Shown: one piece after another, positions 9,207-14,478 of the stretch
Layout: each line of letters begins with the position of its first letter
Position numbering within the stretch: position 1 is the stretch's first letter
From: Spirochaetales bacterium
GTDB taxonomy: Bacteria > Spirochaetota > Spirochaetia > JAIPGG01
Reading direction: 5' to 3'
Length of the DNA stretch: 64,000 nucleotides
NCBI GenBank assembly: GCA_021736255.1
Contig: JAIPGG010000004.1
Location: 3,747-67,746, forward strand
Notes under the pieces: model-generated
Databases searched by the model: none
What the model saw: the letters and a program-made list of their open reading frames with translations, nothing else
What the model was told of the DNA's origin: nothing
Program-made: the position numbers and the translations under genes

Positions 9207-10148
9207 TTACTGCACAACAGGGTATCCTTCGGTTACCCAGCCCATGGGCTCGTTCTTCGGTGTTCCCATACCGCCTTTGAGAGAGGCGGCATCATAACCG
9301 ATGACCTTCAGGATGGCCACAGTCTGCCCGGCAGTCTGTCCGCTGTAGCAATTTACTATGAGCTTCTTGTCTGCGGGAAGGCTTCCGAACATCTCGTGCA
9401 TATCGGCCCCGTAGGGAATGTTGACGGCCGTTTCGATATGCCCCTGGTCGTAGTCTTCTTTTCGGCGGATATCGACGAACTGCACCGAATCATCTTCTGC
9501 ATCGAGGATCTTCTTTGCGTTCTCTGAACTAATGATGTTGTTTGCAAAGGGAGTTCCGGCAAGTTCTTCGAATTCCTTATAATAGGCGTCTACCGTTTCC
9601 TGTACGGCCGGAGCGATCTCATTGTTTGCAGAGGGTACGGCTACCTCGGTAGTATCGATAAACTCATCTGCGCCTTCTACCTTGGAAAAACCGTAGTTGA
9701 ACCCGTACCGCACGGACTTGACGGGGATTCCGGCAAGGTTCAAGAGCGCCACCGTCTGCCCGGCGGTCTGCCCGCTGTAGCAGTAGAGATAGACCTGTCC
9801 GCTCTGGGGAATAGATGCCAGGTACTGTGCAAAATCCGGGCCCCAGGGCATGTTTACCGCTCCGGTAACATGTGCCTCTGCATAGGCATCGGGTTGACGG
9901 ATATCAATAACGAACATATCCTCGCCGTTTTGCAGCTTCTCGAGGAGCATCTCCTCCTTGATAATGTAGCCGCCCTGAGGGTATTCGTCGAAGTAGTCCT
10001 TTGCGAGTTCAGTTACATCAACAGCCGGTTCAGCAGCTTCCTGGGCCTGCTGTTCTCCCTGCGCACCTTCCTGCTGCCCCTTCGCGGTTACGGTCGCCGC
10101 GGAAAGTACCAGCAGAAGCACCAATAGAATGGGAAAGAGCTTTTTCAT
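9207..10148 (-). CDS. exported tandem-rhodanese sulfurtransferase
   Basis: Start reassigned to MKKLFPILLVLLLVLSAATVTA (signal peptide, RBS GGAGGAAG). There are two rhodanese domains, each with an active-site loop CYSGQTAGQT. Confidence 0.8.
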   Translation of the reverse strand: MKKLFPILLVLLLVLSAATVTAKGQQEGAQGEQQAQEAAEPAVDVTELAKDYFDEYPQGGYIIKEEMLLEKLQNGEDMFVIDIRQPDAYAEAHVTGAVNMPWGPDFAQYLASIPQSGQVYLYCYSGQTAGQTVALLNLAGIPVKSVRYGFNYGFSKVEGADEFIDTTEVAVPSANNEIAPAVQETVDAYYKEFEELAGTPFANNIISSENAKKILDAEDDSVQFVDIRRKEDYDQGHIETAVNIPYGADMHEMFGSLPADKKLIVNCYSGQTAGQTVAILKVIGYDAASLKGGMGTPKNEPMGWVTEGYPVVQ

Positions 10149-10233
10149 TGCTTCCTCCGAAAATTTCTTGTATTTATCTACTCCATCCGCCGGGCAAACT
10201 GCTCCGGTACGGATGGAGGTCCTGCACACTGTT

Positions 10234-11133
10234 TTATGAATTGTCCGCTGCTTCCAGTTCGAGAACCTCCGGGTCGGGCACATAAACCGGATTCATCGGG
10301 TTCGCGCTCCATTCAACCCACGCGCCGTCGTAAAGCTTCAGGTCCCGGTAACCGGCATTGTAGAGCGCCAGATACGTCTGGGCCCCGCGGATCGAAGTTT
10401 TGCAAAACATGATCACGGTATCGTCGAAATCGATGTCTTCTTCGAGGTAGCGAATTCTGATCTGCTGTACCGGTTTGTAGGTTCCGTCCTGGAAATTATT
10501 GCCGGTGAAATTCAAAAGAATCGATCCGGGGATGGTTCCCTCTTTGTATTCTTCTTCCGTCCGCGTATCGACAATACAGGTATTCTCGTCCGGGGTGTCG
10601 AGATGGTCTCGAATGTCTTCAGTAGTGGCTATCATTTCATCACGCCGAGGACCGGGTTCGAAAACAGCCGGCTGAACCGATGGCTTATCAGTGGTGATCT
10701 TTGCCCCCTCTTGCTTCATTGCAGCCAGGCCGCCGCTTACAACCTTTACCTGATCGTGTCCGTAGACCTTGAGGGTCCACCACAAACGGGCCGAATCCAT
10801 ATTTTTGTTGTTATCGTAAACAACAACCTGGGTATCATTGCTGATCCCCCGGCTTCCCATGACCTCGGCAATCTGCTCGGGCGGAGCCAAGAGGTTGGGA
10901 TACGGATCATTTACGACTATGTCTGCCCGGGCAATCGATACGGCTCCTGCAACATGTTCCTTCCGATAATCCAGAAGGTTCTGAGCATCCACAAGAAGGG
11001 CCCCTTCGCTTACGAGAGTTTGTGCCTCGGCGGCAGTAATTACCTCGGTATCTTGTTCACCGGCCGGCGGTGTCCCGCAGGCGAGAAGCGGAAGAACTAA
11101 AACCGCCACAACGGCTAACAGCTTGATCTTCAT
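10234..11133 (-). CDS. thiosulfate sulfurtransferase-like rhodanese lipoprotein (two-domain, SseA/TST-like)
   Basis: Lipoprotein signal MKIKLLAVVAVLVLPLLAC. It has an inactive N-terminal and a catalytic C-terminal rhodanese domain with loop CKTSIRG. Confidence 0.8.
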   Translation of the reverse strand: MKIKLLAVVAVLVLPLLACGTPPAGEQDTEVITAAEAQTLVSEGALLVDAQNLLDYRKEHVAGAVSIARADIVVNDPYPNLLAPPEQIAEVMGSRGISNDTQVVVYDNNKNMDSARLWWTLKVYGHDQVKVVSGGLAAMKQEGAKITTDKPSVQPAVFEPGPRRDEMIATTEDIRDHLDTPDENTCIVDTRTEEEYKEGTIPGSILLNFTGNNFQDGTYKPVQQIRIRYLEEDIDFDDTVIMFCKTSIRGAQTYLALYNAGYRDLKLYDGAWVEWSANPMNPVYVPDPEVLELEAADNS

Positions 11134-11160: not shown

Positions 11161-12414
11161 TTATACCGAAACCGGCTCGGCAACATATTTGTTCAGGGCT
11201 TCATAGATATGGGGCTTATCGCACTGGGTGGAAGTCTCAACCACTTCTCCCTCCTTGGTATAGAAGATGGTCATTGGTTCCACATCACAGGCAAGCCGGT
11301 CACAAAGGGATTTCCCCTTGTACTGATCGATGACATTCACTTTAACCTGACCGTCATATTCTTCTTCGATCTCCCGCAGCATAGGAAGCAGCTCTCGGCT
11401 CGGTGCATCGATAGCCGAGTACACGTAAATCAGACCTATCTTTTCCTTCTGCATGATCTGGTTTTTAAAGAGCTCGGTTTCCGAAATATGTTTTTCAGCT
11501 TCTACCCCGGCGATTGCACCGTCACCAACGGCGGTTGCAACCTGCTTGAGTTCTTTTTCTCGCACATCCCCGCATGCATAGACTCCGGCGATTCCTGTTT
11601 CCATCTTTTCATTGGTAATGACATATCCCTGCTTGCTGAGAGAAAGTTTGTCTTTGAATATCTCGGTGTTCGGTACATAGCCGATGAACTCGAAACAGGT
11701 ATCCACGTCGATGGGTATAATCTCTCCGGTCTTCAGGTTCTTGAGGTTCACCCGCTCGAGCTGCTCATCGCCTTCGAAGGAGTCGACTACTGTGTTCCAT
11801 ACGAACTCCATCTTCGGATTGTCGAGGGCCTGATCGCGTGAGATCTCGTTGCAGTCCATTTTCCCCTCATCGTGGATGACCGATACGATGACCTTCTTGG
11901 CAAACTTGCTTAGAAACATCCCTTCTTCAATAGCTGCATCCCCGGAACCAATAACCATAACGGTCTTGTCGGTATTTGCCGCAGCATCACAGGTAGCACA
12001 AAAAGATATACCCTTGTCGAAAAGGTATTTCTCCTCGTTCTCGGCACCTGTCGTCCTCGGTCTTCCGCCTGAGGCAACAATCACCGTCTTGGCTTCGAAA
12101 ATATTCCGAAAGGTTTCGACCTTCTTTACTTCGCCGTCGAGTTCGACATTCTTGACATCGGTAAGTTTGAACTTTACACCGAAGTTTTTTGCCTGTTTCT
12201 GGAAGAGCTCCATCAGGCCGAGACCGGTATTTCCCTCCGGAAAGCCGGGGTAATTCATGATCTCGTTCGTGTAGGTGGCTAACCCGCCGACCAGAGACTT
12301 TTCGATAAGCAGGGTTTTCAACTGCGCCCTGCCGCAGTATATTCCTGCAGTCATTCCACCGGCGCCTCCGCCGATTATGACCACATCATATTGTTCTACC
12401 TTCTTTTCTCGCAT
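11161..12414 (-). CDS. thioredoxin-reductase-like flavoprotein fused to a C-terminal thioredoxin-fold domain
   Basis: FAD site VVIIGGGAGG, redox-active CATCD, and second dinucleotide site VIGSGDAAIEE. HDEGKMDC stands where TrxR has HRRDxxRA. The roughly 100-aa C-terminal Trx-like fold has no CxxC. Confidence 0.8.
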   Translation of the reverse strand: MREKKVEQYDVVIIGGGAGGMTAGIYCGRAQLKTLLIEKSLVGGLATYTNEIMNYPGFPEGNTGLGLMELFQKQAKNFGVKFKLTDVKNVELDGEVKKVETFRNIFEAKTVIVASGGRPRTTGAENEEKYLFDKGISFCATCDAAANTDKTVMVIGSGDAAIEEGMFLSKFAKKVIVSVIHDEGKMDCNEISRDQALDNPKMEFVWNTVVDSFEGDEQLERVNLKNLKTGEIIPIDVDTCFEFIGYVPNTEIFKDKLSLSKQGYVITNEKMETGIAGVYACGDVREKELKQVATAVGDGAIAGVEAEKHISETELFKNQIMQKEKIGLIYVYSAIDAPSRELLPMLREIEEEYDGQVKVNVIDQYKGKSLCDRLACDVEPMTIFYTKEGEVVETSTQCDKPHIYEALNKYVAEPVSV

Positions 12415-12438: not shown

Positions 12439-12984
12439 CTACATAAAGTATTTAACCAGCATCTTGCTGCCGACTACGGCTCCGAAAAACATGGCCAATC
12501 CGAAGACCCAACCGGACAGGGAAAATGAAGCAATACCGGAAAAAAGAGCACCGATATTACACCCGAACCCGATGCGGGCCCCGTAGCCCATAAAAATACC
12601 TCCGAGAATCGCCGCAACAACCTGCCGCCAGGATTTGATTTTCTTGATCTTGAATCCGGAGGCTATAAGAGCGGCAAACAGAGCTCCGACAATAATGCCG
12701 ATATTCCGCCAGCTTCCCGGATCCCGAACAAACCCGCCGTCTATCGTAGTCCAAGCAGACTCTCGGGCAAAGTAATACCATTTATCCACCGAACCGCCGA
12801 GAGATTCGAATATCCAGGCACCCCAGTTGGCAAACACCGCAGAGACTCCCCACGGATTCCGGGTTACAGCAATGGTGAGAATCTGAAATACCGACAGCAA
12901 TATTGCAGCAGTCAGATAGGGCCAGGCATCCTTGAGCCAAAGCTTGTAATATTCGTTTTTCTTGACATTATCGAAGAATTTCAT
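12439..12984 (-). CDS. YeeE/YedE family sulfur-compound transporter, C-terminal half
   Basis: 181 aa and polytopic, with the conserved GFGCNIGALF motif. Confidence 0.8.
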   Translation of the reverse strand: MKFFDNVKKNEYYKLWLKDAWPYLTAAILLSVFQILTIAVTRNPWGVSAVFANWGAWIFESLGGSVDKWYYFARESAWTTIDGGFVRDPGSWRNIGIIVGALFAALIASGFKIKKIKSWRQVVAAILGGIFMGYGARIGFGCNIGALFSGIASFSLSGWVFGLAMFFGAVVGSKMLVKYFM

Positions 12985-12993
12985 ATTGATCCC

Positions 12994-13221
12994 CTACTTT
13001 GTCTTTTCGATGATGACTTCCCATTCACCATCGTCAATCTCTTCGATTTCTACGTTGTGTCCCTCGGTGCGGGCCCATTCGGGAACATTCTTCATTGCAC
13101 AGCTGTGATCGAGCTGAACAATCAGTACATCGCCAACCTCCAGTTCTTCGAGTTTCTTCTGTGCTTTTACCAGAGGAACCGGACAGGCTTCACCGTAACA
13201 ATCTAATTCGACTTCCTTCAT
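12994..13221 (-). CDS. TusA/YeeD-like sulfur carrier protein (copy 1, 75 aa)
   Basis: CPxP-type motif DCYGEACPVPLVKAQKKL. Start reassigned to MKEVELD (RBS AGGAG). The ORF-track N-terminal extension overlaps copy 2. Confidence 0.85.
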   Translation of the reverse strand: MKEVELDCYGEACPVPLVKAQKKLEELEVGDVLIVQLDHSCAMKNVPEWARTEGHNVEIEEIDDGEWEVIIEKTK

Positions 13222-13235
13222 AGCTGTGCTCCTTT

Positions 13236-13463
13236 CTATTTCGTTTTCTCTATGATGACTTCCCATTCACCGTCGTCGATCTCTTCGATCTCGACATTGT
13301 GGCCCTCGGTGCGGGCCCATTCGGGAACATTCTTCATCGCACAACTGTGATCGAGCTGAACGATCAGCACATCACCCACTTCCAGTTCTTCGAGTTTTTT
13401 CTGTGCCTTAACCAGGGGGACCGGACAGGCTTCACCGTAACAATCTAATTCGACTTCCTTCAT
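13236..13463 (-). CDS. TusA/YeeD-like sulfur carrier protein (copy 2, 75 aa, protein identical to copy 1)
   Basis: Same 75-aa sequence as copy 1. RBS GAGGTG. Confidence 0.85.
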   Translation of the reverse strand: MKEVELDCYGEACPVPLVKAQKKLEELEVGDVLIVQLDHSCAMKNVPEWARTEGHNVEIEEIDDGEWEVIIEKTK

Positions 13464-13483: not shown

Positions 13484-14215
13484 TTAATGTTCTGCGCCGG
13501 CAGCTGCTGCCTGTTTTCTTTTGGCAAACTTATCCGCGGCAATCCACAGGAACACAATGATCAATAAATGAACAATAAGTGCTCCGATCCAACCAAATAT
13601 ATCCGGTAGAAAGACCTCATCTCCCTTGAGAATTACATTCAGTTTCCACCATCCAAAATGGTACGCTCCGAGCAGTGAACCAACGATGAAGAAGACGAGG
13701 GAAAGAACCTGCATCATAAATCCCTCACCTACCCGCATCAGTGTTCCCGAAGCACATCCGCCGGATATGACCATACCGATACCGAAAATAAATCCTCCGA
13801 CTATAGTCGCCAGACTTATCGGTACAACAAAACCCATACCGGGAATTGGAAGTCCCTGGGTAAAAGCCCCGTACTTGATTGCCCAGAAACCAATACCGGT
13901 AACCGCAAAAGCAACGAGTACGGCTTTTGAAAGATTGGTTCCTCCGGTCAGGTACGGATCCCTCATTGCAGCCGTAAAACAAAACCGGCCGCGCTGGAGA
14001 ATAAACCCGAATCCGATACCCGTGAGCCAAAAGAACGTTAAATTCTCCGACAACCCGCTCAAGACGATCCCGACAATAACGATGCCGATGAAAACGAGAA
14101 TCCCCAGAGGGATCTGGTTCGTTTTCTTCTTCCGGGAACGGGACCGTGAAGAACTCCTGCGGATTGTTGATCCGCCGGATGATGCCGGGGCCGCAGCATT
14201 CGTATCTTCGCCCAT
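13484..14215 (-). CDS. YeeE/YedE family sulfur-compound transporter, N-terminal part with Ser/Arg-rich cytoplasmic tail
   Basis: Motifs RGRFCFTAAMRD and SGGCASGTLMR. The N-terminal 40 aa are low complexity (SSSRSRSRKKK). RBS GGAGG. Confidence 0.8.
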   Translation of the reverse strand: MGEDTNAAAPASSGGSTIRRSSSRSRSRKKKTNQIPLGILVFIGIVIVGIVLSGLSENLTFFWLTGIGFGFILQRGRFCFTAAMRDPYLTGGTNLSKAVLVAFAVTGIGFWAIKYGAFTQGLPIPGMGFVVPISLATIVGGFIFGIGMVISGGCASGTLMRVGEGFMMQVLSLVFFIVGSLLGAYHFGWWKLNVILKGDEVFLPDIFGWIGALIVHLLIIVFLWIAADKFAKRKQAAAAGAEH

Positions 14216-14263
14216 GCACTAACCTCCGTTTTTTTCTTTCTTCTTTCTAAATCGAAAGAGTTC

Positions 14264-14316
14264 TATAGATATATATAGATATATTCTTATATAAAACTAT
14301 GCAAAATCTATATATA
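14264..14316. promoter_or_regulatory. AT-rich repeat cluster (candidate operator/promoter of the sulfur operon)
   Basis: Tandem TATAGATATA x2 at 14264-14283. An 11-bp inverted repeat, TATATATAGAT (14270-14280) and ATCTATATATA (14306-14316), also lies here. The cluster is 50-100 bp upstream of the yeeE-N start. Confidence 0.35.
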
Positions 14317-14478
14317 AGTTTTCATAAGCAAAGTCGTCATGTTTTGTGTGTAAACGATAGTAGTATGATTTCTGTGAGCGGTCAAGTAAGAATCGCTAAA
14401 AAATTATTAAATCAAATTTTATAATATAGTGTTTTTTATATTTCGTGAAAAACTATCAGAAGGATAAAAGATGGAATC

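Follow-up and report, generated by a model that had tools for sequence, protein, structure and literature searches.

Why would a bacterial operon carry two adjacent genes that encode exactly the same protein when the genes themselves have drifted apart? This question is raised by a pair of tusA/yeeD-like genes in a Spirochaetales bacterium (assembly GCA_021736255.1, contig JAIPGG010000004.1), within a 64,000-nucleotide stretch that we refer to as the window. Both genes are encoded by the minus strand and are flanked by the two halves of a YeeE-type transporter that is split over two genes. Copy 1, which lies upstream in the direction of transcription, occupies 13463..13236, and copy 2 occupies 13221..12994; each is 228 nt long, including a TAG stop codon, and encodes 75 amino acids. 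The initial annotation described the two products as identical at 75 of 75 residues, with 23 synonymous differences (18 transitions and 5 transversions) between the genes, and our codon-level comparison confirms this: the DNA is 10% diverged, and every one of the 23 differences is at a third codon position and is synonymous. The differences span codon 15 to codon 75 and affect all of the last five codons, with identical runs of 44 and 35 nt remaining. The copies are separated by 14 nt (13222..13235, minus strand), a spacer that holds the Shine-Dalgarno (SD) sequence of copy 2 and in which we found no transcription signals. As had also been annotated, the ribosome-binding site (RBS) regions differ, being GAGGTGATATACG-ATG for copy 1 and AAAGGAGCACAGCT-ATG for copy 2, where the latter is the entire spacer; in each case an SD-like sequence is found 7 nt from the ATG. 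A search of the 64-kb window found no third tusA-like sequence.

We favor, with a probability of roughly 0.7, the explanation that an RBS and its tusA gene were duplicated in tandem in this lineage, that the two copies have gone unhomogenized for a long time, and that both have been kept by strong purifying selection, probably for dosage. There were no replacements over 179.7 nonsynonymous sites, and the upper bound on omega (dN/dS) is about 0.02-0.03, a formal estimate that agrees with the annotated claim of strong purifying selection on both copies. If one copy had been drifting freely, about 47-76 replacements would be expected, so the absence of any indicates that both copies are functional and constrained. 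The synonymous divergence (dS) between them is 0.52 by maximum likelihood, 0.56 by LWL85, and 0.85 by NG86, which upholds the earlier view that the duplication is fairly old. The same pair is found in a second strain, represented by L001, a 538-nt ENA metagenome contig that was independently assembled. L001 is 98.1% identical to the window and carries the same two tusA copies with the same junction, its 14-nt spacer being that of the window with one substitution. The two TusA proteins of L001 are again identical to each other. Of the 23 differences between the copies, 21 are common to both strains, and the 8 further coding differences that distinguish the window from L001 are all synonymous.

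To place the pair within its family, we scanned one genome per species, which gave 80 loci, and scanned metagenomes with the window protein, which gave 76 more, for about 156 related loci together. In these loci tusA is kept between the YeeE halves and in their orientation, and a module consisting of yeeE-N, tusA, yeeE-C, and a gene for a thioredoxin reductase-like protein (TrxR) is present in essentially all 80 genome loci, with two rhodanese genes also present in many Spirochaetes. A protein search returned TusA hits in Spirochaetes, Clostridia, and Acholeplasmataceae that are 77-93% identical to the window protein over the full 75 amino acids. Across the genome loci, TusA is the most conserved component of the module, the corresponding identities being 45-73% for YeeE-N, 45-76% for YeeE-C, and 58-85% for TrxR. 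In a sample of 25 sequences, 39 of the 75 TusA columns were invariant across two phyla. About 2 kb upstream of yeeE-N, the Firmicute loci (L011, L015, L016, L019-L028, and others) carry one more, distant member of the TusA family, which shares about 30-40% identity with the window protein and which the Spirochaete loci lack.

The initial annotation had asked whether relatives carry one copy or two, and whether two copies are again identical in protein. Most relatives carry a single tusA. Full-length (228-nt) tandem pairs were found in 14 of the 80 genome loci and 2 of the 76 metagenome loci (16 of about 156), and their products differ by 0-5 amino acids, so that duplication recurs and exact identity is seen in a part of the pairs only. 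An additional tandem pair, in L011, consists of two 225-nt tusA copies. Tandem pairs occur in several separate clades and form a continuum of divergence, from an NG86 dS of 0 (L018) through 0.05-0.4 (most pairs) to as much as 1.28 (L058). When the 16 full-length pairs other than that of the window were pooled, we counted 18 nonsynonymous and 118 synonymous codon differences. The spacers in relatives range from 10 to 205 nt, and their 3' end is often a repeat of the RBS region that precedes copy 1, which indicates that the duplicated unit is an RBS plus a gene and that the events differ between lineages. When 14 other tandem pairs were pooled, we also observed that the differences between copies cluster toward the end of the gene, 44 of 118 being in the last 15 codons. 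Conversion tracts that end at the stop codon may produce this clustering at their edge, or the C terminus may be less constrained.

What would a second, identical carrier contribute? In the characterized YeeE-YeeD system, YeeD binds YeeE 1:1 from the cytoplasmic side and accepts thiosulfate on the cysteine of its CPxP motif, which serves as a "fourth cysteine"; it then dissociates and decomposes the thiosulfate (PMC11073785). The window module most likely works in a similar manner, by analogy with that system. The two copies would be co-transcribed, each with its own SD sequence, in an operon with the order yeeE-N, tusA, tusA, yeeE-C, a TrxR-thioredoxin-like fusion, and two exported rhodaneses. 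Each carrier molecule would dock 1:1 on the cytoplasmic YeeE face, take up a sulfur species on its CPxP cysteine, and leave in order to unload, and a second gene would raise the ratio of carrier to channel; a bigger carrier pool could in turn raise flux. Since the duplication, or since the last conversion that homogenized the copies, silent changes would have accumulated to a dS of about 0.5-0.85, with replacements purged by the very strong purifying selection to which this carrier is subject throughout the family. We infer a dosage benefit because RBS-plus-tusA duplications arise and persist repeatedly and independently, and because the carrier is expected to cycle on and off the channel. Stoichiometry thus remains the best of the three roles that the initial annotation had put forward. 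The suggestion of one carrier per half-transporter is contradicted by the majority of related loci, in which the same split architecture is served by a single tusA, and by the 1:1 stoichiometry of YeeE and YeeD (PMC11073785). Codon usage does not support the suggestion of differential translation, as the values of an index resembling the codon adaptation index are 0.81 and 0.84, and both copies have a good SD sequence at 7 nt. Comparison of codon usage and of GC content at third codon positions between the copies gave no directional signal, and the codons that differ are near-equally used synonyms, consistent with neutral drift.

Several observations weigh against this reading, and they concern both dosage and the strength of selection. 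With regard to dosage, most related loci manage with one tusA; the frequency of tandem pairs is itself uncertain, as metagenome-assembled genomes (MAGs) built from short reads may under-count copies through repeat collapse. With regard to selection, the total absence of replacements is somewhat low for this family. We used shallow, unsaturated pairs as a baseline (nonsynonymous to synonymous ratio of 0.14-0.24), and under a homogeneous Poisson model the probability of observing 0 replacements given 23 synonymous changes is 0.004-0.04. A Fisher test in which both strains are counted, as 31:0, gives P = 0.027, and a lack of replacements was seen in only 2 of the 48 independent nearest orthologue pairs that have 10-30 synonymous codon differences, a comparison that is confounded by saturation. 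There may therefore be somewhat stronger constraint in the window lineage than in its relatives.

Is the absence of replacements truly exceptional? When lineage heterogeneity is admitted, through a gamma-Poisson model with overdispersion, the probability of 0 given 23 rises to 0.06-0.22, and a Fisher test against the other paralogue pairs gives P = 0.08. Orthologue pairs that lack any replacement also exist (L040/L046 at 31:0, L024/L026 at 19:0, and L004/L006 at 13-16:0), over a range of 12-31 synonymous codon differences. Two other baselines were set aside. The nearest orthologues of the window TusA show 21-27 synonymous differences along with 7-9 replacements, and these replacements at equal third-position divergence were discounted because pairs with about 16 or more codon differences are saturated at third positions. 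A tree-wide parsimony count of 1259 synonymous to 418 nonsynonymous changes was likewise rejected, as saturation inflates the ratio of nonsynonymous to synonymous changes. The zero is in the low tail but within the range of the family, and is not clearly exceptional; the idea that it is special to this pair does not hold up in a family where 39 columns never vary and orthologues can reach 31:0. When over half of the positions of a 75-residue protein are invariant, identical products are to be expected, and their identity is no evidence for a mechanism that keeps the copies the same. A similar conclusion was reportedly reached by Nei and co-workers for histones H3 and H4 and for ubiquitin, where identical or near-identical proteins with diverged silent sites are said to reflect strong purifying selection, on copies that matter for dosage, rather than concerted evolution. 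The window pair resembles those families in having identical products and diverged silent sites, but they are eukaryotic and multi-copy, whereas this is a two-copy tandem in a bacterial operon that encodes a 75-amino-acid carrier.

Among the alternatives, the one that survives best, although we regard it as unlikely, is that selection acts on identity itself. If the carrier forms a transient homodimer or shares a single docking site, the two products might be held identical, with omega pushed below the level set by ordinary purifying selection. The nominally low probabilities of 0:23 and 0:31 are in its favor (0.004-0.04 by Poisson and 0.03-0.08 by Fisher), as is the report that StYeeD, the YeeD of Spirochaeta thermophila, runs as both monomer and dimer, with a dimer model proposed for decomposition (PMC11073785). 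However, these probabilities become unremarkable with overdispersion, orthologue pairs show the 19:0 and 31:0 patterns without any paralogue being present, and other tandem pairs tolerate 1-5 amino acid differences (L048, L058, and L109). An extended version of the idea, of which we are equally doubtful, would make the carrier-to-channel ratio evolutionarily tunable: tusA would repeatedly be duplicated in tandem, homogenized, or collapsed, and occasionally, with the window pair as an instance, would escape conversion by silent divergence and become stable, the products being held identical beyond ordinary purifying selection, and without homogenization of the DNA, by a transient homodimer or single docking site.

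We next consider where the second copy came from. L001 counterparts aside, the nearest relative of each window copy is the other copy, and both share the lineage-specific residues L37 and T52. In a tree of concatenated YeeE-N, YeeE-C, and TrxR, the window groups with eight single-copy loci (95 of 100 bootstraps), and a Sediminispirochaeta-like clade in which tandem pairs are common forms a separate group (100 of 100 bootstraps). Placement among single-copy loci indicates that the window duplication was an independent, lineage-specific event. Because the metagenome scan found no relative of the window protein closer than 92% amino acid identity, the age of the duplication is not bracketed by sister genomes. 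We also observed that TusA itself is discordant with the flank tree: the window TusA differs by 11-15 residues from the flank-sister loci (L029, L047, L053, L056, L059, L062, L068, and L113), and by only 7-9 residues from the Sediminispirochaeta-like clade. This discordance could be due to rate variation in a 75-residue protein, or to past recombination at tusA.

Such recombination would be relevant to a second alternative, which is that copy 2 is an allele captured from a related strain or species by unequal recombination, in which case the 10% silent divergence would predate the tandem. Given how conserved the protein is, alleles from strains at about 90% average nucleotide identity would be expected to be identical in protein, and the discordance between TusA and its flanks (7-9 versus 11-15 differences) would fit a history of exchange. 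Against this, L37 and T52 are present in both copies, a search of about 160 loci turned up nothing resembling a donor, each copy remaining nearest to the other, and no foreign junction is seen in the spacer or in the flanks. We consider capture improbable.

It is also conceivable that the silent divergence was itself selected, or was sorted by survivorship, because it stabilizes the tandem against RecA-mediated deletion or conversion, in which case the age of the duplication would be overestimated. Pairs in relatives do seem to turn over, as genomes with one copy and with two are intermingled within one clade and copies from the same genome group together, and only diverged pairs can escape collapse. 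The distribution of the differences speaks against such selection, since they are unevenly spaced and leave the 44- and 35-nt identical runs intact. The changes are between codons that are used near-equally, and 21 of the 23 were fixed before the two strains split, with changes since then accruing at an ordinary-looking rate. We give this possibility little credence.

Gene conversion is less probable still as the reason for the identity of the two proteins, even though it appears to operate in relatives. In L018 the tusA copies are identical, in L078 they have 4 differences, all in the last 31 nt, and in L004 they have 2 differences, both in the last 16 nt, as compared to 13-16 differences between L004 and L006. 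In the Sediminispirochaeta-like clade, one- and two-copy genomes are interleaved, copies cluster by genome, and several pairs differ only near the 3' end, a sequence pattern that indicates frequent turnover or gene conversion of tusA. The signature of concerted evolution was thus found in L004, L018, and L078, but the window pair lies outside it, with a dS of 0.52-0.85 and a longest identical run of 44 nt. Conversion would have erased synonymous differences along with replacements. Instead, because those differences are spread over codons 15-75 and 21 of them are common to two strains, it must be long since any tract extended over the greater part of the gene. These data refute conversion of the whole gene and bear out the initial annotation, which had argued that recent gene conversion does not explain the identity. 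In enterobacteria, the constrained duplicates tufA and tufB are kept near-identical, silent sites included, by ongoing conversion, and are retained for dosage. At 10% DNA divergence the window pair is not conversion-maintained, in contrast to the tuf genes, and it is the relatives L004, L018, and L078 that look tuf-like.

A small, old conversion tract is a separate matter, as it might account for the identical 5' end. The initial annotation gave the length of this segment as 42 nt and attributed it to a local constraint or to partial conversion. The 5' identity is real, but the first difference is at nt 45, so the identical segment measures 44 nt (14 codons plus 2 nt). The probability that the first 14 codons contain no difference is 0.003 if changes are uniform and 0.008 if they are weighted by the synonymous variability of the family; for an identical run of that length anywhere in the gene, the corresponding probabilities are 0.07 and 0.06, and are not significant. 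Synonymous diversity in the family is reduced at codons 2-8 (K2 0.20, E3 0.08, E5 0.00, and D7 0.12) and is not reduced at codons 9-14. The reduction at codons 2-8 fits a general constraint on translation initiation. The mRNA structure that had been proposed as a check on the identical segment proved weak, since folding of the 5' segments gave z scores of +1.1 to +1.4, which are not significant. Copy 1 of L001, moreover, differs at nt 12, inside the run that is identical in the window. The 5' identity is thus only marginal, and the family-wide reduction at codons 2-8 explains a part of it; for the run as a whole, it suffices to combine a general constraint on 5' codons with chance, or to assume a small, old tract of conversion.

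That the pair is an assembly artefact, formed by placing two strain alleles of one gene in tandem, is hardly credible, even though the window probably comes from a MAG (a protein entry identical to it is labeled "MAG: Spirochaetales bacterium") and the coverage of L001 is low (1.7x), for the 14-nt junction is unique, has its own RBS, and is unlike both outer flanks, it recurs in an independent assembly from another sample in which each copy has its own substitutions, and isolates have analogous pairs too, one of them on a complete chromosome (L080, NZ_CP115913) and others in the genome assemblies L027, L061, and L066.

The carrier itself is readily placed in the TusA family. The window protein matches PF01206 with 87.4 bits against a cut-off of 28.6, its residues 5-73 aligning with positions 2-70 of the 70-position profile. 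Both copies have the N-terminal CPxP motif with its invariant cysteine that is defined for the TusA family (PMC11073785), here C13-P14-V15-P16, as well as the further cysteines C8 and C41; C13, P14, and P16 are invariant among 25 homologues. Sequence-level similarity was found to the solved TusA-like proteins 1jdq, 8k1r, 3hz7, and 3lvj, and among solved structures the protein is closest to TM0983 (1jdq) and to the YeeD portion of the YeeE-YeeD fusion from S. thermophila (8k1r, 8j4c), with an E value of about 1e-9 for the alignment with StYeeD. Assignment within the family is less clear-cut. The best NCBIfam model is TsuB/YeeD (NF041048), which scores 50.9 bits, far below its cut-off of 147.5; the YedF model (TIGR03527) follows closely with 45.2 bits, also far below its cut-off.

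Both tusA copies adjoin, and are co-oriented with, genes of the YeeE/YedE family. The transporter's N-terminal half (13484..14215, minus strand; 243 amino acids) matches positions 1-161 of PF04143 (Sulf_transp) with 108 bits and corresponds to residues 7-129 of 6leo, and the C-terminal half (12439..12984, minus strand; 181 amino acids) matches positions 164-310 with 116 bits and corresponds to residues 187-319, so that the two cover complementary parts of the family profile. The N half has equivalents of StYeeE C22 (RGRFCF aligned with RGRICF) and C91 (GGCASG in both), and the C half has the equivalent of C293 in GFGCNIG (FGCNIG aligned with GGCNIG). The N half also has an N-terminal, Ser/Arg/Lys-rich extension of about 60 residues (14036-14215, minus strand; it includes SSSRSRSRKKKTNQ) that has no StYeeE counterpart, the alignment with 6leo beginning at residue 64. 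The NCBIfam models for TsuA (NF041049, NF052577) and YedE/FdhT (NF033796) all score far below their cut-offs on the halves, which is expected for half-size proteins. The selenium-related YedE/FdhT model gives the best of these scores, 103-104 bits against 350, with the matches in swapped order: the N half falls at model positions 179-383 and the C half at positions 3-159. Given sub-cut-off scores to both the TsuA/TsuB and the YedE/YedF models, the substrate of the module could be thiosulfate, sulfane sulfur, or selenium.

Downstream of yeeE-C is a gene for a TrxR-like flavoprotein fused to a thioredoxin-fold domain (11161..12414, minus strand; PF07992 and PF00085; TIGR01292 at 311.8 bits, just under the cut-off). 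Because this fusion directly follows yeeE-C in nearly all related loci, it may be a dedicated reductase or acceptor for the loaded carrier. Its thioredoxin-fold domain (11194-11481, minus strand) has no CxxC at the WCGPC site (...VYSAIDAPS...), with a CDRLAC pair found further on. Next come two double-rhodanese proteins, each matching PF00581 twice. The first (10234..11133, minus strand) has a lipoprotein-like signal (...LLAC) and is conserved downstream in Spirochaete loci. The second (9207..10148, minus strand), also placed by synteny, has a signal peptide; as judged from its sequence, its true start is probably M46 (10148) of the listed open reading frame (ORF) 9207..10283, with the signal peptide following, so that the 50-nt overlap between the ORFs as mechanically listed would be an artefact. 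Both rhodaneses look exported on the basis of these signals, and their position beside a YeeE-type importer suggests that processing of the sulfur substrate takes place outside the cytoplasm and precedes import. Upstream of yeeE-N is an AT-rich leader (14216..14460, minus strand) with promoter-like hexamers and TATATAGAT/ATCTATATA inverted repeats that form a candidate operator, all of these being consensus matches only. Two hexamer pairs, at 14451-14421 and at 14385-14357 on the minus strand, are sigma-70-like. Between them and the yeeE-N start, at 14270-14280 and 14306-14316, are the candidate operator's inverted repeats of 11 nt, TATATATAGAT and ATCTATATATA, which match perfectly.

How does this module compare to known systems? 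As in the YeeE(TsuA)-YeeD(TsuB) systems of E. coli and S. thermophila (PMC11073785; 6LEO, 8J4C, 8K1R), a gene for a CPxP carrier of the TusA family is found next to a YeeE/YedE gene, the three relay cysteines of StYeeE are present in the YeeE halves, and the carrier resembles EcYeeD, the E. coli protein, in that another conserved cysteine is found downstream of the motif. Unlike in those systems, YeeE is split in two with the carrier genes in between, the carrier is duplicated, the TsuA/TsuB scores are far below the cut-offs with the YedE/YedF models about as good, and the module is followed by the TrxR-thioredoxin-like fusion and exported rhodaneses. The PmpA/PmpB(/PmpC) system of Serratia and Hyphomicrobium likewise has YeeE as two half-size genes, whose products are proposed to form heterodimers, and an associated TusA-like protein (PMC11582611). 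PmpA and PmpB, however, are about 130 amino acids long and lack a central helix, whereas the window halves have 243 and 181 amino acids (StYeeE 7-129 and 187-319); the carrier gene of the window lies between the halves, and carrier duplication is not reported for Pmp. In the literature we searched, both for tandem tusA genes with YeeE and for the general pattern, we found no description of a tandem tusA between split yeeE halves.

The tusA pair does not reveal a new mechanism, and is a fairly ordinary old duplicate that has been kept intact. It offers a clean bacterial example of paralogues whose proteins are identical through purifying selection rather than conversion, in a family whose other members span the range from freshly homogenized to long-diverged pairs. 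It also draws attention to a module that is widespread in anaerobic Spirochaetes and Firmicutes and is experimentally uncharacterized, in which a split YeeE is combined with an intercalated TusA/YeeD-like carrier and a TrxR-thioredoxin fusion, joined in Spirochaetes by exported rhodaneses. Finally, the recurrent duplication of tusA suggests that the abundance of the carrier can limit flux through YeeE-type importers.

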